Shown: positions 12,758 to 32,933, counted from the stretch's first letter. The stretch: DNA of 38,920 nucleotides from Candidatus Hydrothermarchaeota archaeon (GCA_964534545.1 CAZHQS010000002.1:1-38920); one strand, 5' to 3'. Notes: generated by a model not told the origin, from the letters alone. A program made the numbers and translations.

Positions 12758-12759
12758 TA

Positions 12760-14675: not shown

Positions 14676-14785
14676 TATACCCTCTTTGTTTATTGTCACA
14701 TCGGTAAAAAATAAGAGAGATGGTTTTCCCGAGATCGAAGCCCAAGCAAATCCTATAAATACCACTAATAATCCAATAAAGGGTT

Positions 14786-17302: not shown

Positions 17303-18319
17303 TCAGCTCCAAAGCAGAACCAGATGGTACATGGCCACGGCCACGGTGGCCACCCCGGCGAAGACCAGGAAGCCTCCCAGGGACAGGAGGCTTGCCCTCC
17401 GCTGGAATCCCTCCACGGCCTCCCTGATGGTGGGGTGGGTCTTGAAGGGTTCCACCACCCCCACCAGCACTCCGAAGATGCCGCCGAAGAAGAGGGCTGT
17501 GTAGAGGGGGTAACCTAGGTAGTAGGGTCCCTGGAGGACCTCGAAGGGACAGCGGTGGTCCACGGGCAGGCCGTAGAGGAGGACGTTCATGTAGGGGCTG
17601 AAGAAGGCCATGAGGGCCACGAGGGATACCCCGAAGGTGAAAAGGGAGAGGAAGGCCACCGGGTAGGCGGCGTCCTTGCGTCTTTTAAGGTGAAGGACAT
17701 GGAGGATTGCCGTGGCGGTGACGCTGGTGTAGAAGAGGAGGGCCACCGGCAGCCTGGGGATGTTGATGAGGATGAAGCCGTAGGGGTTGGAGGCCCTCTG
17801 GAGGACCGAACCGCAGCAGGTGGTGATGACGTTGGGGTCCAGGGCGAGGAAATACTTCAGCTCAAAGAAGGTCTCCAGGGCCAGGACGGGCAGGACCAGG
17901 AGGAGCAGGCCGTACTTGAGCCTGACCAGGGGATAGTCCTCGCCCCGGGTGTCTATATAGTTGATGGCAAGCCAGGTGGAATAAAAGAACACACCGAGGA
18001 CCTTCAACCCCAGGGCCTTGAACCCGTAGGGATTGACGTTCAGGGACCCGAAGGCGCACATGGCCCCCCGCAGGGTGGTGTGGAGGGCATCGGCGGTGAA
18101 GACGAAGAGGAGGAGGGAAAGGACCTGGAAGGCCAGGACGTACTCCATGATGGTGGAGACCAGGTGGGTCTGCCGCTCCAGGGCGAGCTGTTCCTCCGAG
18201 GAGCTGTCCATGTCCCACCTCTTGAGGATCCTCACGGCCACCAGGGCGGCGTAGAGGGACAGGAGGAGGACCACCCCCAGGCCCAGGACCTGGGCAAGGA
18301 TCCATGGGTTCAGGATCAT
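17303..18319 (-). CDS. Polytopic (about 8 TM) membrane protein with conserved-looking Cys motifs, function unknown
   Basis: Hydrophobic throughout. Cys motifs GAMCAFG, TTCCGS and HRCPF. 4-nt overlap with the upstream ATPase gene places it last in the operon. Confidence 0.7.
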   Translation of the reverse strand: MILNPWILAQVLGLGVVLLLSLYAALVAVRILKRWDMDSSSEEQLALERQTHLVSTIMEYVLAFQVLSLLLFVFTADALHTTLRGAMCAFGSLNVNPYGFKALGLKVLGVFFYSTWLAINYIDTRGEDYPLVRLKYGLLLLVLPVLALETFFELKYFLALDPNVITTCCGSVLQRASNPYGFILINIPRLPVALLFYTSVTATAILHVLHLKRRKDAAYPVAFLSLFTFGVSLVALMAFFSPYMNVLLYGLPVDHRCPFEVLQGPYYLGYPLYTALFFGGIFGVLVGVVEPFKTHPTIREAVEGFQRRASLLSLGGFLVFAGVATVAVAMYHLVLLWS

Positions 18320-19002
18320 CTCTTGACCCCTGTTACCCTGCCGTCCCTCATCTCATAGACTACATCCACGAAGGTCCCCTGGTAGACCAGGGGATCGTGG
18401 GTGGCGATGATGACGGTCTGCCCCTCCCTTTTCATCTCCTCCACTATCCCGAGGAACTCCCTGGAGAGGGCGGTGTCCAGGTGGGCGGTGGGCTCGTCGG
18501 CGATGACGATCTCGGGCTTGTTCACCAGGGCCCTGGCTATGGCCACCCGCTGCTGCTCGCCCCCTGAGATCTCCTTCACCAGGTAATCAACCCTTTTCCC
18601 GAGGCCGAGTTTTTCCAGGATGTCCCTGCCCCTGGCCCTCATTTCCCTGGGCCGGACTCCCAGGGCGTAGAGGGGCAGGATGGTGTTCTCCAGGACTGTT
18701 AGGTCCCCGATGAGGTTGAACTGCTGGAAGATGAGGCCGATGTGGGCCCGCCGGTGGAGGGTGAGGAAGCGCTCAGGGAGCTTGGAGACCTCCTTTCCGG
18801 CCACGAAGACCCTGCCCGAGGTGGGTCTTGATATGCATCCAATCATGCTCAGAAGGGTGGTCTTCCCGGAACCGCTGGGGCCCATGAGGATGGTGACCTC
18901 TCCTTCCCGAGCCTCCATGGAGACCTCTCTTACGGCCGCGGTCTCGTTGGGCCTGCCCCTGTTGAAGATCTTTGTGACCTCGAGGGTTTTTACTGCTACC
19001 AT
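18316..19002 (-). CDS. ABC transporter ATP-binding protein, MacB/LolD-like (module 3)
   Basis: GPSGSGKTT, ISGGEQQRVAIARAL, VIADEPTAHLD. Confidence 0.92.
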   Translation of the reverse strand: MVAVKTLEVTKIFNRGRPNETAAVREVSMEAREGEVTILMGPSGSGKTTLLSMIGCISRPTSGRVFVAGKEVSKLPERFLTLHRRAHIGLIFQQFNLIGDLTVLENTILPLYALGVRPREMRARGRDILEKLGLGKRVDYLVKEISGGEQQRVAIARALVNKPEIVIADEPTAHLDTALSREFLGIVEEMKREGQTVIIATHDPLVYQGTFVDVVYEMRDGRVTGVKR

Positions 19003-20181
19003 TTAGATACCCCGTACTGCCACATCCGGGTCGGTGACGGCGGTCTTCCACGCCGGGATGATGATGGCCGCCATGAAGGGCACCACCGAGATGAAGAATA
19101 TCAGGAGGAGCTGGTTCAGGTCCACGTGGGGAGTCAGGGCAAAATCAGGATAGAGCACCGACCAGCCGATGAGGACGGGTTTCAGCAGGGTAGCACCCAG
19201 GTGGAAGACGTGGATATAGGCCAGGATTACCCCCAGGAGGTAGGAGTTCAGGGCGATGATGAGACCCTCGAAGGACTTTAGCGTCAGGATGTCCCCGGTG
19301 GTCCAGCCCACGGCCTTGAGGATCCCCACCTCCCTCTTCTCCTCCGCGGTGGTGGAGGACATCCTGTCAAAGGCCAGGATGGCGAAGGCCAGAAGCATCC
19401 CTGCCATGGCCGCCAGGAACATGCCGCTGCGCCAGCCGAAGATGGTCTCGTAGGTGCGCTCCAGGGCGTCCCTGGGCAGGACCCGGGTGTCGGGCAGTAT
19501 CCGGGATATCTTGCTGGCGACAGTGGGGAGCTCCGCCGGGTTCGCCACATAGACCATGAGGTCGTTGGAGCTGTCCTGCGGGATGCCGAAGAAGGCCCGG
19601 GCGTCGTCCATGTCCAGGAGGACCAGGTCGGCTGTCTGGAGGTTGGATGAGGAGGAGAAGATCCCCACCACCTGGAACTTCACGTATTTCCCTTCTGAGT
19701 TGAGGAGGATGAGCTTGTCCCCCAGCTGGATGCCCTTGAAATCGGCCAGGACCTTCCCCACCACTACCTCTCCTCTCCCGGGTCTGCGCCCCTCCTCCAG
19801 GGCGAGGCTAAAATCCTCCTCCAGGTCCAGCATATCCTCCCTGACCCCGAGGAAGGTGAAGGTGGCCCCGGTTTCCGTGTCGTAGTAGTACCCCCATACC
19901 CTGGGCACCACCCTCGAGACCCCGTTTATCTCCTGGATTTTTTCCATGTAGCCCAGGGGCACCAGGGCCTGTCGCCCCGCCACCAGCTTCTGGACGGTTA
20001 TATCCGGGGCCAGGGAGAGGGTCTCCCGGGCCTCACCCTTAAGGGCGCTGAAGAGGAAGACCTCCGAGGCGAGGACGAAGACCACCAGGACGAAGACCAG
20101 GATGGTGCCGAGGTTTTTCACCTTCTTCCGTTTAAAGGATGAGACGGAATAGTCCAGGATGTTCCGGTGCCTCTCGATCAC
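19003..20181 (-). CDS. MacB/FtsX-type ABC permease (module 3)
   Basis: N-terminal TM helix, an extracytoplasmic domain of about 200 aa, EEKREVGILKAVGWTTG, and three C-terminal TM helices. Confidence 0.85.
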   Translation of the reverse strand: MIERHRNILDYSVSSFKRKKVKNLGTILVFVLVVFVLASEVFLFSALKGEARETLSLAPDITVQKLVAGRQALVPLGYMEKIQEINGVSRVVPRVWGYYYDTETGATFTFLGVREDMLDLEEDFSLALEEGRRPGRGEVVVGKVLADFKGIQLGDKLILLNSEGKYVKFQVVGIFSSSSNLQTADLVLLDMDDARAFFGIPQDSSNDLMVYVANPAELPTVASKISRILPDTRVLPRDALERTYETIFGWRSGMFLAAMAGMLLAFAILAFDRMSSTTAEEKREVGILKAVGWTTGDILTLKSFEGLIIALNSYLLGVILAYIHVFHLGATLLKPVLIGWSVLYPDFALTPHVDLNQLLLIFFISVVPFMAAIIIPAWKTAVTDPDVAVRGI

Positions 20182-20471
20182 CTTTCCACCTCCATGGGGG
20201 CCCCGAGGCCCTCAAAGTCCGGTGGGGAGAAGCCTGCACAGGAGGCGTGGTAGCACATGGCCCCGGGCAGGTCCCTGAAGCAACCCGCCATGTCCACGGT
20301 GCTGGGGTTCCTGGTGGAGTAGCAGTCCGTGGCGATGGAAAGGTCTGTCAGCCCCAGGGGCCTCAGGGGCGGGAGCACGTCCCTTTCCATCGGCCCGGAG
20401 CCTGACAGGAGGAGGGCCAGGACACCCACCTCGAGACCCAGGACCAGAAGAACTGCTGTCGATGCCCTCAT
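20178..20471 (-). CDS. Small signal-anchored 4-Cys protein, function unknown
   Basis: 97 aa. N-terminal hydrophobic segment AVLLVLGLEVGVLALLL, then ATDCYS..MAGCFRDLPGAMCYHASCAG. ATGA-type 4-nt overlaps on both sides. Confidence 0.6.
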   Translation of the reverse strand: MRASTAVLLVLGLEVGVLALLLSGSGPMERDVLPPLRPLGLTDLSIATDCYSTRNPSTVDMAGCFRDLPGAMCYHASCAGFSPPDFEGLGAPMEVER

Positions 20472-20950
20472 TCCAACCCTATCCTCTCCATGTTCTGGAG
20501 GACCTCCTGGAAGGTCATGACCGCCCCGGAGGGATGGTCCTCCCGGAAGGACTCGGCCTTCTCCCGGTCCTGGAAGGGGACCAGCCCGTATCCCATGGGG
20601 GTGTATATTCTGGCCCTGGTGACGAAATAGGCACCCGTGGCGTCAATCCACTCCTGGGTGTAGTAGTCCCTGACGAAGACCTTCCTCACCTGGTCCTGGC
20701 CTGAGAGGCGGCTGTAGTAGATCATCAGGCACCCGGGGTCGTCGAACTTCTTCACCTTGTCCTCCAGGAAGATCTCTCCCGCCCAGTTCTCGTAGTCCTT
20801 GACGTACATGCCGCAGACCGGGCAGCGGTCCCCCTTCTCTATCTCCAGGGGGTGGATTTCTCCGGCTGTAACCTGGGAGGGGGACCCTTTCCCCATGCAG
20901 CCCAGGATAAGAAAAAGCATTGAGACGATCAGGGCAGTCCGTAGTGACAT
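20468..20950 (-). CDS. nosL: NosL-family lipoprotein (putative Cu chaperone), copy 1
   Basis: Lipobox LFLILGC. CPVCGMYV...FDDPGC and GYGLVPF motifs typical of NosL. Confidence 0.8.
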   Translation of the reverse strand: MSLRTALIVSMLFLILGCMGKGSPSQVTAGEIHPLEIEKGDRCPVCGMYVKDYENWAGEIFLEDKVKKFDDPGCLMIYYSRLSGQDQVRKVFVRDYYTQEWIDATGAYFVTRARIYTPMGYGLVPFQDREKAESFREDHPSGAVMTFQEVLQNMERIGLE

Positions 20951-21270: not shown

Positions 21271-21306
21271 CCCGTCCTCTTTAGGACCTTCAGTTGGGGT
21301 GAGGAT

Positions 21307-21984
21307 TTAACCACACCCAACTACCACGAGCTCCTCGCCCATGGCCTCATTTTGCATATCCATACCGCCCATATCCATAGAACCAGTGTCCATACTTTCA
21401 GACCCCATATCCATGCCGCCCATCTTCATCTTGAGGTCCTTCAGCAGGTCCTTGGTTATGGCATCGTAACCTATGACCTCGCCGCCGTGCTCATGGGCAA
21501 AGGCCATGGCGTCATCCATGCTTGCAAAGGGGATAACATCATCACCCATGGGACCCTGGACATCGCTTCCCTTGACGTAGTGGGCGGTCCTGGCATCGAT
21601 GTACTCCTTGGTGGAGTAGTCGGTGACGAAGACCCCGGCTATGGTGCTTGTGTCCTCTATCCAGGTCTTGTCCATGCCCATGTTGTCCAGACCCTTGAGA
21701 TATTTCAGCATGTCCTTGGGGGAGTCAAAGTGGGCGGCCGTTCCGTCTGTGAAGAGGATCTGGGCCCTCCATTCCGGGAATTTTGCGGGCATCATACCGC
21801 AGATGGGGCACTCGTCAGCCATGGTGGGCTGTACCGGTTCTATCTCCGCCGGAGGGGCGGTGGTAGGTGCAGGTGTGGCGGCCGGGGCCGCCTGCTGGGC
21901 TGGCCCTGCACAGCCAGCAAGTAGGCTGATAAGGGTTAAGGTCAAAAGCAATCCTTTTGCACTCGCTTTCATCTTTCGAATCAC
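21307..21984 (-). CDS. nosL: NosL-family lipoprotein, copy 2, with Met-rich tail and ELVVVGCG C-terminus
   Basis: Lipobox LISLLAGC. CPICGMMP...FDSPKD. Met-rich tail MKMGGMDMGSESMDTGSMDMGGMDMQNEAMG. Ends EELVVVGCG. SD GAGGTGAT. Confidence 0.8.
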   Translation of the reverse strand: MIRKMKASAKGLLLTLTLISLLAGCAGPAQQAAPAATPAPTTAPPAEIEPVQPTMADECPICGMMPAKFPEWRAQILFTDGTAAHFDSPKDMLKYLKGLDNMGMDKTWIEDTSTIAGVFVTDYSTKEYIDARTAHYVKGSDVQGPMGDDVIPFASMDDAMAFAHEHGGEVIGYDAITKDLLKDLKMKMGGMDMGSESMDTGSMDMGGMDMQNEAMGEELVVVGCG

Positions 21985-22016
21985 CTCAGTTTTTTATAAG
22001 AGTTAGCCAAAAGGGT

Positions 22017-22046
22017 CAATAAATACCTTACCAGTTGAAAGCGTTC
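22017..22046. repeat. Perfect 30-nt direct repeat, copy 1 (CAATAAATACCTTACCAGTTGAAAGCGTTC)
   Basis: Identical to 27916..27945. It lies 33 nt upstream (minus sense) of the nosL copy 2 start and contains the TATA-like GGTATTTATTG on the minus strand. Confidence 0.95.
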
Positions 22047-22191
22047 AGATAGAAGGGGAACCCTCTCGATCTAGGACATAGAGACGATTAAAATGCTGAA
22101 TATCCCGTCAGTATGCGTCCAAAAGTAAAAATTCAATCTATTTGGCCAAATATGGATAAATATAGTAAAATAGTGGCTGTGGCAGCCGAAA

Positions 22192-22650
22192 TCACAGGGT
22201 TTTCTTACCCCGGCGTCCTTCTCTCAAATCTTCAAACCTCAAAACCACCCCCTCATGTATTTCTCTGAAGGTCGAGACAGACCTGTGGTCCTTGAAGGCA
22301 ATGATGCCGCAGTTCATGGGAGTTTTAATGTCACTGTCCTTGAGATAGTAGGCGTCCTTGATTCCCACCCATTCCAATGTGCGATAATCAGCAACATGGG
22401 CATTTGAGAAGTCAGTGGTGTTATATCTAAGCAGGCAGCATATGGTGCAAAAATCGACTTTTGTGCCGTCCTTCAATGTCAGATAAGAAGAGAACCCCAG
22501 CATCTCATCGGTGATTGCCATCCCGCACTTGGCGCAAGAGTACCCAAGGTCCAGACCACCGAAGTCCCCCTCGCAGCATTCCTGTGTATACACTCCGATG
22601 TTTGCGCATCCGGCAAGGAGGACCAGGGCCAGACCGCAGATACACTTCAT
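22192..22650 (-). CDS. nosL: NosL-family lipoprotein, copy 3
   Basis: Start MKCICGLALVLLAGC at 22650, 7 nt after the upstream stop. CAKCGMAI...VDFCTICC and NCGIIAF. The longer track ORF (to 22797) overlaps the upstream gene. Confidence 0.72.
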   Translation of the reverse strand: MKCICGLALVLLAGCANIGVYTQECCEGDFGGLDLGYSCAKCGMAITDEMLGFSSYLTLKDGTKVDFCTICCLLRYNTTDFSNAHVADYRTLEWVGIKDAYYLKDSDIKTPMNCGIIAFKDHRSVSTFREIHEGVVLRFEDLREGRRGKKTL

Positions 22651-22657
22651 GGCTTTC

Positions 22658-24103
22658 TCAGCTGCCCCATCCTCCACTTGAGACCGCTTCGGTTGTAAAG
22701 GCAGCCGAGATAAACATCTCGGTCGCATTGACGGTAGCCTCTCTGTCCTTTCCCGCAATAATAATGGCGGTTTGACCTTCAACGAAGGCATCTTCAATTA
22801 CTTCGATGTCGCCCTCACTTGTATACCAGTCAACCTTTGATTTGCCGGTGCTCACCAACTCGGCAACCAGGCTGTTTGCCACCGGGCCTCCTACGAGCAC
22901 CAGGGTCTTCTCCCCTTTTTCACTCTCAGTGATCTCCTTCTCGGATTTTACAGGGATATGAGGAATGCCATTATACGAACCGGAAGCCCCGATGAGGACG
23001 TCCTTGGTCAGGAAATCATCGTAATCGGCCTTGGTCTTCTTAAGCCAGGTCTCCGGGAGGACATCACCCAAGGTCTTCTCCTTCTCTATGTCGAAGGTCT
23101 TGGCAGTCGAGAGGCTGACCCAGTATTTCGTACCGGAAATCTTTATACTCTCCCCAGGGGAGAGGGTCACTTCGGGCCCAAAGGCCGCGAACCCATTGGG
23201 GACGCCGTAATCATCATTGAATACCTTTATGAACTCATATCCTGCTGTATCTTCTATGCCGTCCGTTAGCTCTATCACATCGGATCTGTTCACAAAGGCG
23301 ATAGTTACGGTGCCGGCGCTGGCGTCCACGGTATCCAGGATCATGTGATGGTCAGGGAAGAGGTCTAAAAACTCTTTCTCTTCGACGAGTTCCGGCAGGT
23401 CGCTCTGGTTGTATGGCAACTCGAAGGACCTGTCCATAGACCCCTTGTCCCTGTCATAGACCCCCAATCGGAGGGAAAGGTTTGCTGTGATACCGAAAAC
23501 CCCTATGCTTTTAGAGGTATGAGGTACTGAGATGAAACTATTTATGTTTGCTGCATTAATGAAGGTCCTCTTGGCCACCTTTCCTATCACAATCTTCTCC
23601 CCTGCCTCTATATCCACTATGCCGTAATAATCCGTTGTCATCGCCTTCTCCTTCCAGTCGTAGTATCTGACGGTGAATATCTCCCCCTTCCGGGCGCTCG
23701 TCTTTTTGTAGCATGGTCTGAGCTTAAGATCCCTGGATTTTTCGGTGAAGTACAGATAACTGTATCTGAACTCGGCCCTCCCGGTGGTACTCTTTTTATA
23801 ATAGCTGCTCTCGTTGATGTTCGACCAGTCAAGACCCGCGAAGTCGTCGGTTAGCCATGTGATCTCAAGTTCAATACCGTCATCAATGGTTACACTTTCT
23901 GTACCGACCTCTTTTATCTTCTCGGCAATAGTGTTAGCACATTTCAGGTCTTCCGGCACGATGCCGTGGGTGTTTATTCCGACAACGACTGTTGTTCTCC
24001 CCTCCCCGTCCTGGGAGAAGATGCTCTTATCGAAGGTCAGCTCCTCTGCATGGACAAGACCTAGGGATAGCAACGCCACCAGTATCAAGGGGAGGGCCTT
24101 CAT
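22658..24103 (-). CDS. Secreted archaeal S-layer-like protein
   Basis: Signal peptide MKALPLILVALLSLGLVHA. N-terminal TVVVGINTHGIVPEDLKCANTIAEKI and C-terminal LVLVGGPVANSLVAELV motifs resemble the methanococcal-type S-layer family. The RBS AAAGGAGG lies in the end of the upstream gene. Confidence 0.65.
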   Translation of the reverse strand: MKALPLILVALLSLGLVHAEELTFDKSIFSQDGEGRTTVVVGINTHGIVPEDLKCANTIAEKIKEVGTESVTIDDGIELEITWLTDDFAGLDWSNINESSYYKKSTTGRAEFRYSYLYFTEKSRDLKLRPCYKKTSARKGEIFTVRYYDWKEKAMTTDYYGIVDIEAGEKIVIGKVAKRTFINAANINSFISVPHTSKSIGVFGITANLSLRLGVYDRDKGSMDRSFELPYNQSDLPELVEEKEFLDLFPDHHMILDTVDASAGTVTIAFVNRSDVIELTDGIEDTAGYEFIKVFNDDYGVPNGFAAFGPEVTLSPGESIKISGTKYWVSLSTAKTFDIEKEKTLGDVLPETWLKKTKADYDDFLTKDVLIGASGSYNGIPHIPVKSEKEITESEKGEKTLVLVGGPVANSLVAELVSTGKSKVDWYTSEGDIEVIEDAFVEGQTAIIIAGKDREATVNATEMFISAAFTTEAVSSGGWGS

Positions 24104-24104
24104 C

Positions 24105-25178
24105 TCAGTCTGCCTCCTTTTGGTAAAACCCCCGCATTGCCGGGATCGTGGTGGCTATGGAATAGACGCTTCCCCCACAACCTGCAACCTCATCTTCGCT
24201 GGAGAGAACCGCTGGCTCAGGCTCCCAATTTTCGCCCTTTTTGACTGCTACGACTCCTGCTACGACTCCTCCCTTCAAGAGATATTCAAGGAGGGCGGTC
24301 ACGGCACCCCCGTCCTGGGTTTCGTATTCCTTCTTGACCCTTCGGACAGCGAGGACTTCCAGATATCTCCCGATCCCGTTTTCATACTCTCCGTCCAGGG
24401 ACTTTTCGACTGTCCTGGCAGGCATGGCAGTCCTTGGGCAATTCAGGTAACAGTCATTGCAATCTTCCTCACACTCGGCGGTGGGCACCCCATCTTCCAT
24501 TTTCAAGTATCCCTTCGTACAGACCAGCTCACAGGTGCCGCAGGAGGTACAGAGCCAGTTCTCGATCACATCCGATCTAAGGTCCTGGTATTTCTTGCCG
24601 GTTGCTCTTTTTTTGACCACTTCTATGGTTATCTCGTGCTCGATATGATGTTGTTGAGAACCGTAGCTTTTTCTCCGGCTCACCTCAGCGAGAGCCCTTT
24701 CCCTTTTTTTCCCGGCTATCTTTTTAATATCGTCAATTCCACTCACTGGTTTCGTCTCGAGGACACCTTCTTCCTCTGCCGTATTTATGATGTCCAGGGC
24801 CTTTTTCGACCTTACGATGACCGTGCTCCAACCATAAGGAGAGCCTGCTGCACCAAAGGATATATCTGCGAGTTCTGCTGCGAAATCAGTGCATACCTGA
24901 CAGGCCCTTGCCGAGTAGCGGCCTGCCTCCTTCATGGGGATACTTGTTTCGCTGGAGTCGTAGGTTACCACCAGACTCCCATTCCTTACATCGAACTTCT
25001 CGATGTCCTTGAGGTCTGTGCCCACCCTCTCTTCTATCATTGCCTGAAAAGACGGGTAGCACCAGTTCTCCTGGCAGAAGAGACCGATTAAAAGACTCTC
25101 ATCTTTTCTCTCCGAAAGTAGATTCATCTTTCTCAAACCCTGGATTTGACAGGGTGTTCCAACAAACGCGATTTCCAT
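24105..25178 (-). CDS. FrhB/FdhB-family (F420-type) flavoprotein with circularly permuted domain order: C domain, 2x Cys cluster, N domain
   Basis: Starts MEIAFVGTPCQIQGLRKM...LIGLFCQENW...CQVCTDFAAELADISFGAAGSPYGWSTVIVRS (FrhB C-half). Then CTSCGTCELVC and CEEDCNDCYLNCP. Then QDGGAVTALLEYLLKGGVVAGVVAV...GSVYS (FrhB N-half). ATG 25178 lies 2 nt after the upstream stop, with GGAGGT in place. Confidence 0.8.
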   Translation of the reverse strand: MEIAFVGTPCQIQGLRKMNLLSERKDESLLIGLFCQENWCYPSFQAMIEERVGTDLKDIEKFDVRNGSLVVTYDSSETSIPMKEAGRYSARACQVCTDFAAELADISFGAAGSPYGWSTVIVRSKKALDIINTAEEEGVLETKPVSGIDDIKKIAGKKRERALAEVSRRKSYGSQQHHIEHEITIEVVKKRATGKKYQDLRSDVIENWLCTSCGTCELVCTKGYLKMEDGVPTAECEEDCNDCYLNCPRTAMPARTVEKSLDGEYENGIGRYLEVLAVRRVKKEYETQDGGAVTALLEYLLKGGVVAGVVAVKKGENWEPEPAVLSSEDEVAGCGGSVYSIATTIPAMRGFYQKEAD

Positions 25179-25180
25179 TC

Positions 25181-25435
25181 TTAAAACCTCCAAAATTCGA
25201 TTACAATGATCAAAAAAGCAAGGGCCAGAAGGGCGAATATCCCGATGCCTCTCCCATGTCTTTTTGCCATCCATAGGAGGAGGGGCACACCACCGATACC
25301 GCAGGCATAGCAGCCCGGGCATGCCCCGGTGCACAGTCTTTGAACGGTCTGGGAGCCATGGGAGAAGATGACCGGGGCTGTCGCCATTGAGAGCCCTACC
25401 AGGAACCCTTTGCCTTTTTCCAACCGGCCGCCCAT
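25181..25435 (-). CDS. Small Cys-rich membrane protein
   Basis: 84 aa with CTGACPGCYAC followed by a C-terminal TM helix (IGIFALLALAFLIIVIEFW). Abuts both neighbouring genes. Confidence 0.6.
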   Translation of the reverse strand: MGGRLEKGKGFLVGLSMATAPVIFSHGSQTVQRLCTGACPGCYACGIGGVPLLLWMAKRHGRGIGIFALLALAFLIIVIEFWRF

Positions 25436-26332
25436 CTACTTCCCCTTCTCGTATGTGATGGCCTTGTTCGGGCATGCGCTGATGCAGTCCATGCACCCAT
25501 TGCAGATGTGGCGGTCGATGGAGATCCTGTCCTCTGATCTTACTGCCCAGGTGGGACAGGACTCCACACAGAACTCTCCGCTGCACCTGCATTTTGCCAT
25601 GTCATGTTTGATCTTGTAGGTGAAAGGCAGCCTTGCCCCAATCCAGTGGGTCAGGTTCTGCAGCGCACCGGCGGGGCAGAGGAAATTGCACCACCCGCGT
25701 CCGCCCTCCAGAACGACACCCAGGACCACAAAGGTCAAAAGGAAGGTTATGATGGAGGAGGACGTAAAGGCAAACATCCCGTAACCCGTTATGCCGTCAA
25801 GATTGCCGAATAGGCCGTTCCAGACATTCTCTATCCAGGTCCAGTTGCAGTAGGCACAGCAGACGCTTTTTTTAATGAAAGGGGCAGCCACGATGAAAAA
25901 TCCTGCAAGGAAACCATATCTTATCGGCACGGGGTCCAGTTTTCCCCTCAGGTTGATCTTGAATCTCGAAGGCACAATCCTTGATAGGTGCTCGGGCATA
26001 CCTCCGGGACAGAGCCAGCCGCAGAAGAGGGGGCCGACGAAGAAGGATATGCCGATCAGGAGGAATATCAGGAGATAGAGGGGATTCCCGATAATCCGCC
26101 CAAAAAACCTCTCCGGGCTGAATACGGCCCATGTGAGGGGCATCCGGAGGCACATGGCCCGGTGCACCGTTGGCTCCGAGTTGATTGCCGCACCCCCGAT
26201 TCCAGAGTCAAGGGCCGCACAGAGCTGCCCAATCCCCACCAATAGAAGGGAGAAGGGTGCGACGAAGAGGACCATGCCCAGAAGGAAGAAAAGGAGCCTC
26301 TTTTTCAGGTGGTCTTTCCTGGCCTTGCTCAT
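25436..26332 (-). CDS. NapH/NosH/MauN-like polytopic membrane ferredoxin
   Basis: FCGWLCPGG and WCNFLCPAGA motifs after TM helices. C-terminal CRCSGEFCVESCP and CNGCMDCISACP. Start MSKARKDHLKKR at 26332 forms an ATGA overlap with the upstream stop. Confidence 0.82.
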   Translation of the reverse strand: MSKARKDHLKKRLLFFLLGMVLFVAPFSLLLVGIGQLCAALDSGIGGAAINSEPTVHRAMCLRMPLTWAVFSPERFFGRIIGNPLYLLIFLLIGISFFVGPLFCGWLCPGGMPEHLSRIVPSRFKINLRGKLDPVPIRYGFLAGFFIVAAPFIKKSVCCAYCNWTWIENVWNGLFGNLDGITGYGMFAFTSSSIITFLLTFVVLGVVLEGGRGWCNFLCPAGALQNLTHWIGARLPFTYKIKHDMAKCRCSGEFCVESCPTWAVRSEDRISIDRHICNGCMDCISACPNKAITYEKGK

Positions 26333-26892
26333 TGAGGCCGACCCCCTTCCCATGACCCCTGACCTCCACTGACTCTTTTATTGATTATCTTTATAGGTAT
26401 GGAGAGGAGGATTTCTCCTGATTTCGCATCGATTACATTGAGGTTCCCGCTGTATATCATGGGTCTTTTCTGCAGTTCTGGTGAGATGTGGAAGGTATGA
26501 TGGACCGATACCGAATCGCCGGGTTTTAGAACCCTCTCGATGGTCCTGGTCTCCAGGTTGAAATCCTTGGTATGGGAGTTGCTCCAGTGGACCTCCAGTC
26601 CTTCTGGCACATTGGTCAGTTCAAATCTAACCATGACCGGTTTCCTGGTGTTGGTGAGCCCGGTTGTGCCTCCAACGGTATCACTTGAAATCAATCTGTG
26701 GAGGAACCCGTCCTCCCCGTACTTCAGGATGATGGGCCTTGCCTTCTCGCCGGGGAACCTGTAAAACTGGTGGTATCCCTCCCCTGCCCGGACGTCCCTG
26801 TGGTAAAAGCCCAGGACGAAGGCAGAGGACAGGCCGATCAAGAACAGAATATAAGTTGATTTTTTCCGGTTCGAATGAACAACATTTGCCAT
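26329..26892 (-). CDS. Signal-anchored beta-rich protein, function unknown
   Basis: 187 aa. N-terminal TM helix (YILFLIGLSSAFVLGF) followed by beta-strand-like sequence. RBS AAGGAG. Confidence 0.65.
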   Translation of the reverse strand: MANVVHSNRKKSTYILFLIGLSSAFVLGFYHRDVRAGEGYHQFYRFPGEKARPIILKYGEDGFLHRLISSDTVGGTTGLTNTRKPVMVRFELTNVPEGLEVHWSNSHTKDFNLETRTIERVLKPGDSVSVHHTFHISPELQKRPMIYSGNLNVIDAKSGEILLSIPIKIINKRVSGGQGSWEGGRPQ

Positions 26893-26974
26893 ATATTACA
26901 CTCCTTTAGATTTAGAGGGCAGGGATGCACCCCGAGATGTGGGGCGTGCCGTACATCTGGCAGAGGACCGTCTT

Positions 26975-27000
26975 AAGAAAAAAGTGGGGGCAATGCCCCC
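26975..27000 (-). terminator. Intrinsic terminator after the C_GCAxxG_C_C gene
   Basis: On the minus strand, GGGGGCATTGCCCCC (26986-27000) is followed by ACTTTTTTCTT. Confidence 0.7.
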
Positions 27001-27010
27001 TTCACCCCTT

Positions 27011-27820
27011 TCAAGTCCCGGGCAGGTCGGGCACGCCTTCATTGTGGCAGTCGCCGCAGTTGTTCTGGGCGGTCATGTCGTGGTTTTTGGCTTGTGACCC
27101 GTGGGCCGGCGAGTAGGTCCCGTCCTTCCAGGCATTCAGGAGCTCCACGGTCTTTGCCGCCACACTGGCTGCACACCGGGCACACCTCTCCTTTCTCTCG
27201 GGACTGAAGAATGCAACATTTTCCTTCTTCATCCATTTACCTACGGAGACGTGGCAGAGGGGGGAGTTGGCTTTATTTGTATACTTGATAGTCACCTTGG
27301 GCTCGTCCGGCATGTAAGTTGGGAGCTCCTCTTTGGAGTACCAATAAATTACATCATTGAATATGGCCTCGCCGTCCTTGCCAGCTATGAGGCCGGTGAC
27401 AATACCGGTCCCGGCCAGGGTCCCGCACAGGGTACCCCAGCCTACTGCCCCGCCATGAAATCCTCTGAAGGCTTCACTGGGGAATGAAGTGTAGGGTTCT
27501 CCGACCTTCTCTGCAAGGGCTTCCATTACCCCGCTTACCACACCATAACTGCAGAAGTCCTTGTACCAGTTCTCGTAGGCGATGTCCGCCGCCCTTTTGG
27601 GATCTATCTTCTCATAGGGCATGGGCCAGGAAAGACCACCTGTCTTGACTTCAACGATCTTTTCCACTTCGACGACCCTCTCCTCGGGTTGAGACAGGCA
27701 CCCGGACAGCATGCCCAGACCCCCCGAGGCCATGGCCATTCCGGCCGTAAATCCAGCCGATCCGAAGAGGAATTCCCTTCTCGTCAGCTTCCCTTCCTCC
27801 GCAGCTTTTTCTTCAACCAT
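27011..27820 (-). CDS. Tat-signal C_GCAxxG_C_C-family redox protein with C-terminal CxxCH
   Basis: Tat signal TRREFLFGSAG...LSGC. FCSYG, GGAVGWGTLCGTLAGTG, PLCHVS, RCARCAAS. C-terminal NNCGDCHNEG. Confidence 0.8.
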   Translation of the reverse strand: MVEEKAAEEGKLTRREFLFGSAGFTAGMAMASGGLGMLSGCLSQPEERVVEVEKIVEVKTGGLSWPMPYEKIDPKRAADIAYENWYKDFCSYGVVSGVMEALAEKVGEPYTSFPSEAFRGFHGGAVGWGTLCGTLAGTGIVTGLIAGKDGEAIFNDVIYWYSKEELPTYMPDEPKVTIKYTNKANSPLCHVSVGKWMKKENVAFFSPERKERCARCAASVAAKTVELLNAWKDGTYSPAHGSQAKNHDMTAQNNCGDCHNEGVPDLPGT

Positions 27821-27828
27821 ATCCTTTT

Positions 27829-27891
27829 ACCTCCATGTTTTGAATTTTAAGGAGGTGAATGTGTGAGAGTTGTGAGACTCATCGCACATCC
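27829..27891 (-). promoter_or_regulatory. Second copy of the conserved leader element (5' UTR of the C_GCAxxG_C_C gene)
   Basis: On the minus-strand RNA, ...UGAGUCUCACAACUCUCACACAUUCACCUCCUU... ACCUCC (27851-27856) is complementary to the SD GGAGGU (27829-27834). Confidence 0.4.
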
Positions 27892-27915
27892 ACGGATTCA
27901 CTGTTAAAAAATGAC

Positions 27916-27945
27916 CAATAAATACCTTACCAGTTGAAAGCGTTC
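27916..27945. repeat. Perfect 30-nt direct repeat, copy 2
   Basis: Identical to 22017..22046. It lies about 95 nt upstream (minus sense) of the 27820 start. Confidence 0.95.
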
Positions 27946-28140
27946 CGCTTGTCAAAATCGGGAAACAAAAAACCAATGAAAATTCAAATAAAGCGTCACA
28001 ACACGTCAATATGTAGAAAAGCTTATAGTAGAATGCTACATTACACAGATTCGTAAATATACACCGGTTCTCCAGATAAAATGGCCGAATCGGCTGCCTT
28101 TATATTGGTGGAAAAGGACTTATGAAAAAAGGAAAAACCA

Positions 28141-29103
28141 TCAAATAGAAAGCTTGACCTTAAAGGTTTTCTTATAAGGTTCACGTTTTATTATCCCTCT
28201 TTCCTCTAAATCGGCAATGATCCGGCTGACCTTGGGCCTGGAGTAGCAGACCTCCTCCGCCCTCCAGATATCCTGCTGGAGGACCTCGCCGCCATGGTCT
28301 TTGATGTAATCCACCACGCATTTCTCATCTGGATTTAGGAAGACCTGGGCAACTTCGCTCTCCCTTTTTCTTTTGGCGATGAAGAAGCCGGAGGTGAAGA
28401 TGCCTGCTATAAAGGCCCCCCCGAGGAGATACCACTTCATCCTGGACTTCTTCTTGGGTATCAGAAGGTCGATATCGAACCTCTCGTTGGCCCTCAGGGA
28501 CCTCTTCCATATGAGAATGAGGCCCTCCTCATCGATGATTATGTCGTCGGGGGGCTGGGTAGCAAAGTTCCCCTCGGGACTGAGGCGGCAGGTGATGCAG
28601 GTGCTGCAATCCTCACAGATGCACAGGCCCCCCTGGCTGCACTGGCAGTCCTCCTCGCAGACGGCCCCATGGCTTTTGAGTTCGGGGAATATCCCCTTGG
28701 GAAGTTCAACCATAAGGGTCAGGGATTCCACGGCCTTGGGGAAGACCAGGGCCTTGTTGAAGAGGAGGAAGTCGTCCAGGGTCTTGACCTCCGTGCCCTC
28801 TATCCTCATGGTGAAGGAATAGGTTTCGCCTTTTTTCAGGCTGTCCTCAAAAAAGACCCTCACCGAATCTCCCCGGGCCTCGGTCCTCAGGGCCTTCCCC
28901 GAGGCCGAGACGGCTTCCAGGGGACCCATGGGCGAGAAGTCCAGGTACTCCAGCCCCTCCTCGGCCGGGGTCAGGGTGATGTCATATTCCTGGTAGTTGT
29001 TCTCCAGGTTGATGTAAACATCTATCCTGTCGAAGGCAAACTCCGCTGCCAAGACATCTCCAGGGATGAGGAGGACCAATACTACCATGAGGAGGGTTTT
29101 CAT
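28141..29103 (-). CDS. Membrane-tethered winged-helix regulator with a Cys-rich ectodomain
   Basis: Start MKTLLMVVLVLLIPGDVLA at 29103 (signal peptide). Ectodomain contains CEEDCQCSQGGLCICEDCSTCITC. TM helix WYLLGGAFIAGIFTSGFFI. C-terminal wHTH VVDYIKDHGGEVLQQDIW...RPKVSRIIADLEERGIIKRE. Confidence 0.7.
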   Translation of the reverse strand: MKTLLMVVLVLLIPGDVLAAEFAFDRIDVYINLENNYQEYDITLTPAEEGLEYLDFSPMGPLEAVSASGKALRTEARGDSVRVFFEDSLKKGETYSFTMRIEGTEVKTLDDFLLFNKALVFPKAVESLTLMVELPKGIFPELKSHGAVCEEDCQCSQGGLCICEDCSTCITCRLSPEGNFATQPPDDIIIDEEGLILIWKRSLRANERFDIDLLIPKKKSRMKWYLLGGAFIAGIFTSGFFIAKRKRESEVAQVFLNPDEKCVVDYIKDHGGEVLQQDIWRAEEVCYSRPKVSRIIADLEERGIIKREPYKKTFKVKLSI

Positions 29104-29209
29104 CCTACCTGGTTCAAGAGCCTTAACCTCATAAATGTGGTAAATTTTGGCGGAAATGGGGTGATATTCTGGTAAATGTATATAATCGGAATCTCCCGAT
29201 TTAATAACT

Positions 29210-29440
29210 ATGAGTAAGGAAAACACCGGAACCCGGAAGGGAGGCCATGGCTTTGGCGATACCCTCAAGGAGGGCAGGAAGAGGCTCAAGATAAAGATGG
29301 CAGACCTGATTTATGTCCTGGACATCCAGAACAAGAACCCCCATGTGGACCGGGTCCTGGCAGACTACGGCCTGGACCGGGACACCCTGAAACGGGTCAA
29401 GGCGGCCCTGGAAAGGGGCAGGTGGAAGGTCCAGGTCTAA
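29210..29440 (+). CDS. Small basic protein (possible HTH), hypothetical
   Basis: 76-aa ORF with host-like codon usage. TGTATATAAT and the ATCGG/CCGAT palindrome lie upstream. Its stop overlaps the hemY stop on the opposite strand. Confidence 0.35.
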   Translation: MSKENTGTRKGGHGFGDTLKEGRKRLKIKMADLIYVLDIQNKNPHVDRVLADYGLDRDTLKRVKAALERGRWKVQV

Positions 29441-30867
29441 CCGCCCTTTTTCAGGTATCTAACTACCTTTTCCCCGGTCTCGGCCGCCACCCTTGAGCAG
29501 TCGTTGATTCCTATGCCGGTGTAGGAGTTGCCTGCCAGGAAGAGGCCGGGATGCTCCTTCAATCTCGCCTCCAGCCTTTCCAGCTTTTCAGAGTGCCCCA
29601 CATTGTACTGGGGGATGGCCTTGCCGTGGCGGGCAATCTTTACCATCTCGGGCTCGGCCTGGACCCCCATGATCTCCCGCAGGTCCTTCTTGACCGCCTC
29701 TATCATGTCCTGGTCCAGGAGGTCGGCGGTCTCGGGACGCCTGGCCCCCCCCACCATACACCTCAGGAGGACCTTGCCTTCGGGGGCCCTGTGGTCGTAC
29801 ATGCTGGAGTCCCAGAGGCATCCCAGGATGGTCCTGCCCTCCTCGTGGGGGACCAGGAAGCCGAAGCCCTCCAGGTCATGGCCGATTTCCTCCTTGGAAT
29901 AGCCCAGGGCCACCACCGCCAGGGGGGGATAGGGGATCTCCTCCAGGATACCTTTGATCTCCTCGTCCAGGCCCGAGAGGACCTCGGCGCAGGCGTAGGC
30001 CGGGGCGGCCATGACCACCACATCAGCCCCCAGGCTCCCGGTGCTGCCCTCTTGGTCCTGGTAATGGACGGTATATCTCCCCTCGGGGCTCATTCCGACC
30101 CGCGTCACCCTCCTGCCGGTGACGATGGCATCGCCGAGTTTCTCCTCCAGGATATCTATGATGAACTGCATTCCCTCCGGGAAGGAGGTCAGGGTGCCTC
30201 CGGGCCCCATGGGACCCCCCTTGGCCCCCGCCTTGCCCTCCTTTCTCATCTGTTTCGCCTTCTTCATCCTCCGGATCATGGCCTTTATGAGGCTGCCGCC
30301 GCCCTCCTGCTCGAGCTGGGCCATGATGGGGAAGGCGCTTTTGAGGCTGAGCCTGTAGGGGTCCCCGGCGAAGACCCCGGAGACCATGGGCCCCACCAGG
30401 TTGCGCAGGGCCTCCCTTCCGATGTGCCTCTCCACGAAGGAGGCCACGGTCTCGTCCCCGGCCTCTGGTGGTTTCGTGAAGGGCTCCCTGAGGACCCTCA
30501 GCCTCCCCTTGAGGGAGAGGACCCCGGATTTGAAAAAGCCCAGGGGGGAACTGGCCAAGAGATGGAGCTTTCCATAGGCATAGATGTACCTCTTCCTGGC
30601 CCTGTCATTGGAGGGCATGAGGCGGTCCCTTATCCCCAGGGCGTCGCAGAGCTCCAGGGTCCAGGGCTTGTTGTCCAGAAAGCCGTTGACCCCCCATTCT
30701 ATGCTGTAACCTTCCGTCTTCTCGGTCCATACCTTGCCCCCCAGCCTCCTGGAACCCTCGAGGACGGTTAGGTCTATATCCAGACCCTCCTTCTCTGCCC
30801 CCTCCATGATCCTGAAGGCCGTGGCCAGGCCTGAGAACCCACCACCCACGACTACGATTTCGGTCAT
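29437..30867 (-). CDS. hemY: Protoporphyrinogen/coproporphyrinogen III oxidase (HemY/CgoX type)
   Basis: FAD-binding fold IVVVGGGFSGLATAF, about 476 aa, C-terminal GNSYTGIGINDC. Adjacent to hemH and hemE. Confidence 0.85.
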   Translation of the reverse strand: MTEIVVVGGGFSGLATAFRIMEGAEKEGLDIDLTVLEGSRRLGGKVWTEKTEGYSIEWGVNGFLDNKPWTLELCDALGIRDRLMPSNDRARKRYIYAYGKLHLLASSPLGFFKSGVLSLKGRLRVLREPFTKPPEAGDETVASFVERHIGREALRNLVGPMVSGVFAGDPYRLSLKSAFPIMAQLEQEGGGSLIKAMIRRMKKAKQMRKEGKAGAKGGPMGPGGTLTSFPEGMQFIIDILEEKLGDAIVTGRRVTRVGMSPEGRYTVHYQDQEGSTGSLGADVVVMAAPAYACAEVLSGLDEEIKGILEEIPYPPLAVVALGYSKEEIGHDLEGFGFLVPHEEGRTILGCLWDSSMYDHRAPEGKVLLRCMVGGARRPETADLLDQDMIEAVKKDLREIMGVQAEPEMVKIARHGKAIPQYNVGHSEKLERLEARLKEHPGLFLAGNSYTGIGINDCSRVAAETGEKVVRYLKKGG

Positions 30868-30877
30868 GTAGTAACCT

Positions 30878-31822
30878 CTACTTCTGAATATTTAAAACCA
30901 TCCCGGCCAGGGCATCGATGAACTTCTCGGAAGTATTCAAAGACTCGGTGCGCCTGAAGTTGTCTATTCCCAGGGATTCAGCATATTCCCGGTACTGGAT
31001 ATCGATCTCGTAGAGGGTCTCGATGTGGTCCGAGACAAAGCTGATGGGTACCACCAGGACATCCCTGTGGCCCTTCTCTGCCAGGTTCTTTAATGTCTCC
31101 CCGAGACCGGGACCCACCCACTTGACCGGTCCCGTCCTGCTCTGGTATGCCAGGTGCCACCCCATCTCCCCCACCCTCTTCCAGACCCCATCTATGGTCC
31201 CCCTTATGTGGTCGATGTAGGGGTCCCCCTCATCCAGGAACCTCTGGGGAATGGAATGGGCGCTGAATACCACCTGGACCCGGTCTGGATTGCCAAAGGC
31301 CGAAAGTCCGTCCCTCACCTTCTCTGCCAGGGCGTCCAGGTAGCCAGGGTCATCGTAGAAGCTCTCGATCCTCCTTTCTTTAAAAGCCAGACCCAGGGTC
31401 TCCTTCACCCTCTCCAGCTCTGCGAGACATGAACCTGTGGTAGCCCTGGTATATTGAGGATAGAGGGGGAGTATCACAAGCTCCTTTATCCCGTCCTCCT
31501 TGACCTCCCACAGGGCCTCCTCCAGGGTGGGGTGCCAGTAGCGCATACCCACGTAGCACTTGCAGCCCTCCAGGCGCTCCTCCAGGGCCAGGGCCTGCTT
31601 CAGGGTGATGTCCAGGATAGGGCTCCTGCCGCCGATGCGGGCGTAGCGCCGGCGGACCTTCCGTGACCGGACCAGGGACAGAAACCTGGCAAAACCTTTC
31701 TGGAAGGGGAGGTGTATGATGTCCCTGTCCGAGAAGAGGTTGTACAGGAAGGGCTGGACCGCCTCCAGGGAATCCGGTCCACCGAGATTTAGAAGGAGCA
31801 CTCCTTTTTCTACCATAATCAC
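30878..31822 (-). CDS. hemH: Ferrochelatase (HemH/CpfC)
   Basis: LLLNLGGPDS...VQPFLYNLFSD, YPQY, FSAHSIP, SFVSDHIETLYEID. Confidence 0.88.
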   Translation of the reverse strand: MIMVEKGVLLLNLGGPDSLEAVQPFLYNLFSDRDIIHLPFQKGFARFLSLVRSRKVRRRYARIGGRSPILDITLKQALALEERLEGCKCYVGMRYWHPTLEEALWEVKEDGIKELVILPLYPQYTRATTGSCLAELERVKETLGLAFKERRIESFYDDPGYLDALAEKVRDGLSAFGNPDRVQVVFSAHSIPQRFLDEGDPYIDHIRGTIDGVWKRVGEMGWHLAYQSRTGPVKWVGPGLGETLKNLAEKGHRDVLVVPISFVSDHIETLYEIDIQYREYAESLGIDNFRRTESLNTSEKFIDALAGMVLNIQK

Positions 31823-31863
31823 CCTCCATCATAAATCCTTGCCAGGGATATAAGTATTTTCGC

Positions 31864-32895
31864 CTATCTGTGACTGAACCTCTTCACCGCCTCCACCATG
31901 GCGATGACGTTCTCCACCGGGGTGTGCTTGTTGATGCCGTGCCCCAGGTTGAAGATGTGGCCCGGCCTGCCCCCGGCCCGGTGCAGGACGTCCTTGACCC
32001 TTTCTGCGATGTAGTCCCGGGGCGCCATCAACACCATGGGGTCCAGGTTGCCCTGGATGCCCACATCATGGCCGATGCGCCCCCATGCCTCGTCTAGGGG
32101 GATGCGCCAGTCCACCCCTATCACGTCGCCCCCGGCCTCCCTCACCGACTCCAGGAAGGTGGCGGCCTGGTTGGCGAAGTGGATGACGGGAACCTCACCC
32201 TTGATCCGGTCGATGATCTTCCTGGTGTAGGGCATGGCGAACTCCCGGTAATCTGAGGGGGTCAGGCACCCTGCCCAGGAGTCGAAGAGCTGTACCGCCT
32301 GGGCCCCGGCCTCTATCTGGGCCTTCAGGTAGAGGGCCACCGTATCCGTGAGCTTCTCCATCAGAACCTCCCAGGTTTTGGGCTCCGAGAACATCATGGT
32401 CTTGGTGTGGAGGTAGTCCCTGGTGCCGCCCCCGTCCACCATATAGGAGGCCAGGGTGAAGGGCGCCCCCGAGAACCCTATCAGGGGGACACGACCCGCG
32501 AGCCTTTCCCGGAGGATCTTAACGGCCTCCAGGACATAGGACAGGGCCTCGAAGGGGTCCGGAACCTTCAGGGCCTCGGCATCTTCCCTTGTCCTCACCG
32601 GGTTGTGGATTACCGGACCCCTGCCCGGGACAAACTCCAGGTCCGCACCCATCCCTTCGAAGGGCACCAGGATGTCTGAAAAGAGGATGGCGGCATCAAC
32701 CCCAAGGCGGTCGATGGGCTGGAGGGTGACCTCTGCCGCCACCTGGGGCTTCCGGCACATCTCCAGGAAGGAGTACTTTCTTCGTACCTCCTGGTACTCC
32801 TCCATGTACCTGCCCGCCTGGCGCATGAGCCAGACTGGAGTGCGCTCCGTCTCCTCCCGGCGGCATGCTCTAAGGAAAAGGTGATCGTCTCCCAT
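31864..32895 (-). CDS. hemE: Uroporphyrinogen decarboxylase
   Basis: RTPVWLMRQAGRYMEEY, ILFSDILV, FDSWAG, NLGHGI. I chose start MGDDHLFLRAC at 32895; the longer track ORF adds a non-homologous extension. Confidence 0.88.
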   Translation of the reverse strand: MGDDHLFLRACRREETERTPVWLMRQAGRYMEEYQEVRRKYSFLEMCRKPQVAAEVTLQPIDRLGVDAAILFSDILVPFEGMGADLEFVPGRGPVIHNPVRTREDAEALKVPDPFEALSYVLEAVKILRERLAGRVPLIGFSGAPFTLASYMVDGGGTRDYLHTKTMMFSEPKTWEVLMEKLTDTVALYLKAQIEAGAQAVQLFDSWAGCLTPSDYREFAMPYTRKIIDRIKGEVPVIHFANQAATFLESVREAGGDVIGVDWRIPLDEAWGRIGHDVGIQGNLDPMVLMAPRDYIAERVKDVLHRAGGRPGHIFNLGHGINKHTPVENVIAMVEAVKRFSHR

Positions 32896-32933
32896 CAACC
32901 AAGGTGTAGGGAGAGGGGCCCATATAACCTTTT

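Follow-up and report, generated by a model that had tools for sequence, protein, structure and literature searches.

A stretch of 38,920 nucleotides (nt) from Candidatus Hydrothermarchaeota archaeon (GCA_964534545.1 CAZHQS010000002.1:1-38920), referred to here as the window, was analyzed with respect to six minus-strand genes at positions 22192-26892, which were designated A to F. As judged by gene order, the genes encoding an anchored protein with a predicted immunoglobulin (Ig)-like domain (A), a NapH-like membrane polyferredoxin (B) and a small cysteine-motif membrane protein (C) are a conserved three-gene core found in both bacteria and archaea. On the same comparative evidence the gene for a permuted FrhB-family flavoprotein (D) is a lineage-specific insertion into the A-B-C cluster. 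The last two genes encode an S-layer-like protein (E) and a NosL homologue (F). The reading which we favor, at a probability of about 40%, is that A-B-C may be a NapH/CcoG-type conduit used for copper handling in this archaeal clade, with D as the putative point of input for F420H2 (or ferredoxin).

Loci encoding homologues of B were collected from species-representative genomes (25), metagenome contigs (6) and exact-protein look-ups, and were searched with all six proteins. Gene A was found directly upstream of B in approximately 32 of 38 independent loci (19 of the 25 genome loci and all 13 of the others), and three of the six genome loci with no adjoining A end at a contig edge. The A-B pair occurred in Acidobacteriota, Chloroflexota, Desulfitobacterium, Thermincola, Thermaerobacter, Actinomycetota, Hecatellales, Hydrothermarchaeota and Geothermarchaeales, and in at least 20 loci, bacterial as well as archaeal, B was followed by a gene for a C-type protein. 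No FrhB gene was observed beside B in any B-homologue locus outside this species. The initial annotation of this region had made its proposal depend on conservation of the six-gene order; the order proved not to be conserved and is limited to three contigs of the same species (L001-L003), on which the D proteins are 100% identical. In two sister lineages five of these genes are found again, and in four lineages four of them, with FrhB in none. Genes A and C, which had been treated as peripheral, proved to be the truly conserved partners of B, and further archaeal partners, a split-Soret-like protein with a twin-arginine translocation (TAT) signal and a helix-turn-helix (HTH) regulator, lay beyond the region that had been annotated.

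These further partners are a C_GCAxxG_C_C/split-Soret-cytochrome-like protein, here called Ssc, and a membrane-bound DUF7343 regulator, here called HTH. Four sister loci are sufficiently complete to be compared with the window, and all have a GC content of approximately 48-50%, with A 57-72% and B 64-67% identical to the window proteins. The gene order is HTH-A-B-C-Slayer-NosL-Ssc in L037 and HTH-Ssc-A-B-C-NosL in L038. In L048 it is HTH-A-B-C-NosL-Ssc-PCuAC, with AprB nearby, and in L049 HTH-Ssc-A-B-C-Slayer-NosL-PCuAC, followed by ribosomal protein S3Ae, on account of which the host of this locus is taken to be archaeal. A fifth locus, L039, is a partial contig of 1.9 kb with HTH-A-B at its start (A 72%, B 70% identity). 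As HTH, Ssc, A, B, C and NosL are common to L037, L038, L048, L049 and the window, these six are regarded as the conserved archaeal set. The S-layer-like gene is optional, being present in three of the five clusters when the window is included and in two of the four sister loci, and PCuAC is present in two of the five. The linkage between NosL and the NapH-like protein that had been pointed out initially was thus upheld, with NosL adjoining A-B-C in all four sister loci.

The neighbors of the bacterial A-B-C genes were of other kinds: MacB-type ATP-binding cassette (ABC) genes in seven loci, DUF4418 in five, a YncE-like propeller lipoprotein in Thermincola, TonB-receptor/CarboxypepD_reg proteins, or none. 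The order in the Thermincola locus L021 is MacB-ATPase-YncE-like propeller-DUF4418-A-B-C. In the Acidobacteria-like loci L007 (8184-11306) and L010 (7998-11981), A-B-C is followed by an outer-membrane barrel of the CarboxypepD_reg/TonB-receptor type, which in L010 is a CarboxypepD_reg protein of 1327 amino acids (aa), and in L010 a weakly MerB-like protein (possibly of NosL fold) is encoded before A. Literature searches on DUF4418 and on the combination of NosL, MacB and propeller returned no description of this system.

Within the window the six genes are tightly packed. Genes A (26892..26329, 187 aa), B (26332..25436, 298 aa), C (25435..25181, 84 aa), D (25178..24105, 357 aa), E (24103..22658, 481 aa) and F (22650..22192, 152 aa) are separated, as read directly from the sequence, by junctions of -4 (an ATGA overlap), 0, 2, 1 and 7 nt. 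The 4-nt overlap of A and B results from setting the start of B at 26332, a choice which agrees with the N-termini of 15 homologues. A terminator-like hairpin with a T-run (GGGGGCATTGCCCCC, 27000..26986, minus strand) was found between the upstream split-Soret-like gene and A, and another (22187..22175, minus strand) right after the stop codon of F, while a scan of the coding strand detected none within A-F. Because the junctions do not exceed 7 nt and terminator-like hairpins bracket the genes, the arrangement fits one discrete transcription unit. The positions, strand and junctions given for the six genes by the initial annotation, together with its view of them as a compact unit and its domain assignments, as checked against Pfam and NCBIfam, all hold.

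Protein B has the NapH-like architecture that had been assigned to it, with four transmembrane (TM) helices, a pair of CX3CP motifs and a C-terminal 2x[4Fe-4S] domain, and it matches Pfam Fer4_5 and Fer4. Its best NCBIfam matches were NapH/MauN models, at scores far under the cut-offs (TIGR02163 napH, 53 bits versus 213; NF007013, 43 versus 234), and the CcoG model was not among the 25 best. Alignment with E. coli NapH (b2204) gave 26% identity and extended across both CX3CP motifs (CGWLCP at 104 and CNFLCP at 215) and both Fe-S motifs (248-260, slightly atypical as CxCx4Cx3CP, and 277-288). NapH has the same four-TM core, with CX3CP where TM2 and TM4 reach the cytoplasm, and the same C-terminal 2x[4Fe-4S] domain, but it lacks the dedicated partners A and C and the additional outer-loop cysteines, which in the B family belong to the motifs HRAMCLRMP, between TM1 and TM2, and CCxYCNW, between TM3 and TM4. 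Brondijk et al. are said to have placed the NapH termini, CX3CP motifs and Fe-S domain all on the cytoplasmic side; by homology with NapH, the B loops with HRAMC and CCxxC would then face outward. No nap genes (napG, napA, napB) were present in the window or in the approximately 38 homologous loci. When a set of plasmids was searched by tblastn with B, YccM alone was returned (25% identity) and no FixG. The AlphaFold2 (AF2) model of B, made from 16 sequences, had a predicted local distance difference test score (pLDDT) of 58.6, and when it was compared with the PDB by Foldseek only the ferredoxin part was matched (E > 0.2), from which it appears that the NapH-type membrane domain is without a solved structure.

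No Pfam or NCBIfam model matched protein A. Its AF2 model (mean pLDDT 62) contains a TM helix at 7-28 and a beta-sandwich at approximately 70-172, where pLDDT was approximately 70-86, and A is accordingly predicted to be anchored by its N-terminal TM helix and to hold an Ig-like sandwich outside the cytoplasm. The best compact Foldseek match of the model was 2r39, a FixG-related C-terminal Ig domain (TMt 0.61, root-mean-square deviation 3.1 Å, E 6e-5); the remaining structural matches were generic PapD-like Ig folds, and Pfam FixG_C was weakly matched by 2 of 44 representatives of the A family. As the modelled fold is like that of the FixG C-terminal domain, A and B together resemble, at the level of the model, CcoG/FixG divided into two polypeptides. 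CcoG/FixG likewise joins a NapH-type polyferredoxin to an extracytoplasmic Ig-like domain and has a genomic link to copper trafficking; in contrast, the Ig-like domain is here made as a protein of its own from an upstream gene, nothing in CcoG corresponds to C, and the ccoGHIS/ccoNOQP (cbb3 oxidase) gene context was not found. The copper site of CcoG reportedly lies on the cytoplasmic side, according to work by Marckmann et al. from 2019. The A family is small, as exhaustive searching of 1.84 billion representatives by profile yielded no more than 54 clusters (50% identity), and a word-indexed search with A returned 6 proteins. An assignment of A as a NosR-type flavin mononucleotide (FMN)-binding domain was considered and rejected, as FMN_bind gave no match and the aligned sequences share no motif for flavinylation. 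The bacterial homologues of A in L017, L018, L021, L022, L024, L025 and L034 have a conserved C-terminal CC motif (DCCAP, ECCKE) which the archaeal A proteins do not have.

Protein C carries the motif CTGACPGCYAC (CxxxCxxCxxC) and matched no Pfam family. The family has a common layout, in which a positive N-terminus and a weak Gly/Ala/Ser-rich helix are followed by C-x3(5)-C-x2-C-x2-C, a Pro-containing TM helix and a positive tail. The four cysteines would on this layout lie at the outer membrane surface.

The three NosL copies in the window are among the features that hint at copper. Protein F, the third copy, matched NosL (PF05573) with 43.5 bits against a cut-off of 24, is Cys-rich (11 Cys) and contains an LAGC lipobox, CAKCGM and PMN. 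Copy 2 (21307..21984, minus strand; 110.5 bits) has CPICGM, PMG, a Met-rich C-terminal tail of the MGGMDM type and a VVVGCG end, and copy 1 (20468..20950, minus strand; 97.4 bits) has CPVCGM and PMG and heads a 97-aa gene and a MacB-type ABC permease/ATPase (20471..18316; MacB_PCD/FtsX). Each of the three has a lipobox, CxxCGM and PM(G/N). In S. denitrificans NosL the Cu(I) ligands are C62, M64 and M145, with C59 at an adjacent Zn site (Prasser et al., PMC8457098); CAKCGM and PMN of F correspond to these three ligands. On these motifs the NosL copies are homologues of the lipoprotein-type Cu(I) chaperone. NosL is also known to occur outside nos clusters, and oxidation of its cysteines must be avoided (PMC8457098). 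A second family of Cu(I) chaperones, PCuAC (PF04314, 61-63 bits), is encoded in two of the sister clusters. As in NosR/NosH systems, a NapH-like Fe-S membrane protein is thus encoded with NosL, whose copper ligands are kept. In contrast to those systems, the nearby ABC transporter is MacB-type and not NosFY, and B is without an FMN-binding domain; FMN_bind, NosZ, NosD and NosY were all absent from the window, so that NosL alone is common with nos systems.

Protein E, which lies between D and F, matched S_layer_C (PF05124, 70.5 bits versus a cut-off of 23.9) and TIGR01564 (42.1 versus 25). A search for S_layer_N gave no match, the alignment to PF05124 is interrupted by a large insertion, and the C-terminal 70 aa were matched by the S-layer protein of PDB entry 9fsa. 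Orthologues of E (71% and 66% identity) occupy the equivalent position in L037 and L049, and from its domain matches E is classed as a secreted S-layer-family paralogue.

Protein D consists of FrhB_FdhB_C (2-146), a 2x[4Fe-4S] ferredoxin domain (approximately 195-255) and FrhB_FdhB_N (285-345), the N and C domains scoring 146.7 and 61.2 bits against Pfam cut-offs of 23.3 and 22. This is not the canonical order, (ferredoxin)-N-C. The permuted order is shared by more than 100 homologue clusters aligned at 97-98% coverage, which make up a large archaeal family. The FAD/[4Fe-4S] motifs of D (PCQ at 9, FCQEN at 34, CQVC at 93, QDGG at 288 and GGSVY at 335) align with FrhB 3zfs_C, and the four FrhB [4Fe-4S] cysteines and two ferredoxin cluster motifs are kept. 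Because all of these are retained, the flavin site is not degenerate, and the reservation on this point that accompanied the initial annotation does not apply. The best PDB matches were FrhB 3zfs_C (4.7e-46), then the F420-reductase modules 8riu_B and 8rja_E (approximately 1e-44), which dock on carbon monoxide dehydrogenase (CODH) and Fwd and couple both to F420 (Lemaire et al., PMC11493965). As the same cofactor set is present there in canonical order, D is a circular permutation of the 8RIU_B/8RJA_E arrangement. Like D, CODH zeta and FwdI of Ca. Ethanoperedens (8RIU/8RJA), FrhB6-Pfor and FGltS combine this cofactor set with a gene position beside an Fe-S enzyme, but D differs from them in being permuted and in that its putative partner is an integral-membrane polyferredoxin, a pairing for which no precedent was found in the literature searched.

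Outside the species, the nearest relatives of D are just 40-43% identical. Two of them (P0008 and P0019) lie upstream of porGDAB and overlap its start; more distant relatives occur in glutamate synthase clusters, as in Methanobacterium, and one from a Hydrothermarchaeota genome stands alone; FrhB paralogues have been described in Pfor (FrhB6) and GltS clusters (Chadwick et al., PMC9012536). Since members of this family habitually adjoin the Fe-S enzyme that they serve (POR, GltS), it is reasonable that D might serve B. Literature searches on permuted FrhB returned no description of the system. With respect to the supply of F420, no F420 biosynthesis (cof) genes are present in the window. The window does contain MfnB and dsrAB (5712-7964, minus strand), the latter matching at 456.7 and 480.3 bits, over the curated cut-offs. 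As DsrAB is bona fide, the host is a sulfite- or sulfate-reducing archaeon, and MfnB and DsrAB together hint, circumstantially, at an Archaeoglobi-like or methanogen-like cofactor repertoire.

Base composition bears on how D came to be in the cluster. From NosL2 through HTH (approximately 21300-29300) the GC content of third codon positions (GC3) is 0.57-0.73, compared with 0.73-0.89 in the rest of the window. Taken with the orthologous clusters in archaea of approximately 48% GC, this shift points to horizontal acquisition of the island. The GC3 of D, 0.57, is island-like and unlike that of the host genes (0.73-0.89), which suggests that D was already part of the cluster when this genome acquired the island.

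On the reading that we favor, B would hold its [4Fe-4S] clusters and CX3CP motifs in the cytoplasm, by homology with NapH, and expose family-specific cysteines in its outer loops, and the hairpin of C would add four cysteines at the outer membrane surface. Electrons from the cytoplasm could then be passed through A-B-C to an outer cysteine-rich or metal site. In the archaea A-B-C would reduce copper or hold Cu(I), and keep thiol ligands reduced, for the neighboring NosL chaperones, with PCuAC as an additional chaperone served in sister lineages. Ssc may be a further extracytoplasmic redox partner and the Cys-rich membrane HTH protein a sensor. D, with FAD and three [4Fe-4S] clusters, would most likely dock on the cytoplasmic ferredoxin domain of B and supply electrons from F420H2, or possibly from ferredoxin. 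Gene structure, domains, intact motifs and co-occurrence were observed in the sequences; the topology, the way in which electrons run and the roles of copper as substrate and F420 as donor are what we infer in this scheme. The copper assignment draws on a CopD-like gene in the window, the Met-rich MDM tail of NosL2, the Cu(I) ligands kept in the NosL copies, PCuAC in two sister clusters and the Cys-rich extracytoplasmic domain of HTH. A more far-reaching proposal, that A-B-C is an undescribed class of transmembrane reductase, widespread in both domains, which passes low-potential electrons of the cytoplasm to a cysteine/metal centre outside, and that the present example is the first membrane complex to be driven directly by F420H2 through a docked permuted FrhB, powering the supply of Cu(I) to chaperones at the cell surface, we regard as doubtful.

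Several observations weigh against the favored reading. Most bacterial A-B-C loci are without copper genes, and copper may therefore be a lineage-specific use; the window itself has no gene for a cuproenzyme or for any other evident client. By sequence B is not measurably nearer to CcoG than to NapH, MauN or YccM, the AF2 models of A and B are of low-to-moderate confidence (pLDDT 62 and 59), and the Ig-like fold is a generic one. The topology of C comes from the positive-inside rule alone. D has been seen in one species-level lineage only, and FrhB-family enzymes with other substrates exist, HCAR and BciB being examples which use ferredoxin.

The available evidence can also be read in other ways. 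In a respiratory NapGH-like branch, B would oxidize quinol and feed Ssc, as a stand-in for NapG, and then a terminal reductase which NosL would mature, with D feeding the quinone pool or being unrelated. While B has NapH architecture with NapH as its best curated match, a TAT-exported redox protein lies beside A-B-C in L037, L038, L048, L049 and the window, and the host, having DsrAB, is an anaerobic respirer, a terminal reductase was linked in none of the approximately 38 loci, and a periplasmic redox partner is missing beside A-B-C from most of the bacterial loci and from several of the archaeal ones. The outer cysteines of B and the whole of C are without NapGH counterparts, and the insertion of a cytoplasmic donor module such as D speaks for the cytoplasm, and not quinol, as the source of the electrons. 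A NapGH-like role has been raised for stray NapH homologues in anaerobic methanotrophic archaea (ANME) by Chadwick et al. (PMC9012536), but for the present cluster we consider it unlikely. The predicted outer face, on which seven or eight cysteines are conserved, would also suit an exporter of thiol-disulfide reductant, an analogue of CcdA/DsbD driven by ferredoxin or F420, in which Fe-S clusters would reduce the CX3C pairs and these in turn the outer cysteines of B and C, so that, for example, NosL/PCuAC ligands or the CxxCH of apocytochrome c would be kept reduced. The 11 Cys of NosL3, the neighboring CxxCH proteins and DsbA-like lipoprotein, and the need to avoid oxidation of NosL cysteines (PMC8457098) are all in keeping with such a role. 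No thioredoxin-fold partner is conserved beside A-B-C, however, and no precedent was found for a NapH-family protein in which Fe-S clusters drive a disulfide relay across the membrane; we consider this explanation quite improbable, even if sequence alone does not separate it from the copper model.

Two further explanations concern D. It may be a passenger that landed by chance between C and E and works with an unlinked POR or GltS, which would leave the operon with no link to F420. Its absence from all other A-B-C loci would be expected in that case, as would the attachment of its closest relatives to porGDAB, and of others to glutamate synthase or to nothing at all. Against this, the 2-nt and 1-nt junctions on either side of D and the lack of an internal terminator imply co-translation with the membrane-complex genes, its composition matches that of the island, and the FrhB family is recurrently encoded beside the enzyme it serves. 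A chance landing thus seems rather unlikely. The initial annotation had proposed that the six-gene system carries F420H2-type (or ferredoxin) reducing power to an extracytoplasmic metallo-enzyme. The observation on which it was built is correct and the mechanism is plausible for one lineage, but with the order confined to the same species the proposal is refuted as a conserved system and is very improbable overall, and the comparative data point to copper chaperoning.

The component superfamilies of this cluster are already known. What is new is the fixed A-B-C set, the predicted outer-face cysteines, the archaeal linkage to copper chaperones and the placing of a permuted FrhB with a membrane polyferredoxin, no description of which was found in the literature searched. 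NapH-like proteins are scattered in the genomes of anaerobes and are usually unexplained; with two fixed partners, candidate outer-face cysteines and an archaeal NosL/PCuAC link, one orphan NapH-like family gains a testable function. Extracellular copper acquisition and trafficking are poorly known in anaerobic archaea. If D does act on B, the FrhB insertion would be a natural experiment in which a soluble F420/FAD module has been recruited to a membrane Fe-S protein, extending the idea of a plug-in F420 reductase from CODH and Fwd.

With respect to the genes adjoining the operon, Ssc (27011..27820, minus strand) has a TAT signal and one CxxCH; it matched PF09719 and, with 153.9 bits, fell under the cut-off of 400 for the split-Soret cytochrome c model NF047622. 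Orthologues of Ssc (59-69% identity) adjoin A-B-C in L037, L038, L048 and L049. The HTH regulator (28141..29103, minus strand; PF24034) probably starts at Met63 of a 382-aa open reading frame (28141-29289). It consists of a signal peptide, an extracytoplasmic Cys-rich domain (CEEDCQCSQGGLCICEDCSTCITC), a TM helix and a cytoplasmic DUF7343 winged helix, and its orthologues head the clusters of L037, L038, L039, L048 and L049. As a membrane-bound one-component protein it may be a metal or redox sensor.

An archaeal host is suggested by the DUF7343 and DUF7347 domains, an S-layer protein of the Methanocaldococcus jannaschii type and MfnB in the window, and by ribosomal protein S3Ae in L049; neither Rfam nor tRNA scanning of the window gave a hit. 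A hemY-hemH-hemE set (29437-33030, minus strand), encoding protoporphyrinogen oxidase, ferrochelatase and uroporphyrinogen decarboxylase, represents a haem branch which is unusual in archaea, although the contig looks archaeal in other respects. CxxCH proteins are numerous. One of them, a membrane protein at 8079-9029 (plus strand), joins CxxCH to a CopD-like TM domain and a cytochrome b5-like domain. Two secreted beta-propellers with C-terminal CxxCH haem motifs (51-1499, internally duplicated, and 4235-5671, both on the plus strand) each adjoin a MacB-type ABC set. These propellers were considered as NosZ-like clients and rejected, as they showed weak YVTN/hydrazine-synthase-beta similarity, no NosZ signal and no curated family. 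In all, four MacB-type (FtsX/MacB_PCD) ABC permease sets lie within 39 kb (1544-3413, 11126-13428, 13425-14810 and 18316-20181). The C-terminal end ELVVVGCG* is identical in NosL2 (21307-21330, minus strand) and a beta-propeller/CxxCH protein (5642-5671, plus strand), and could be a C-terminal sorting or lipidation signal.

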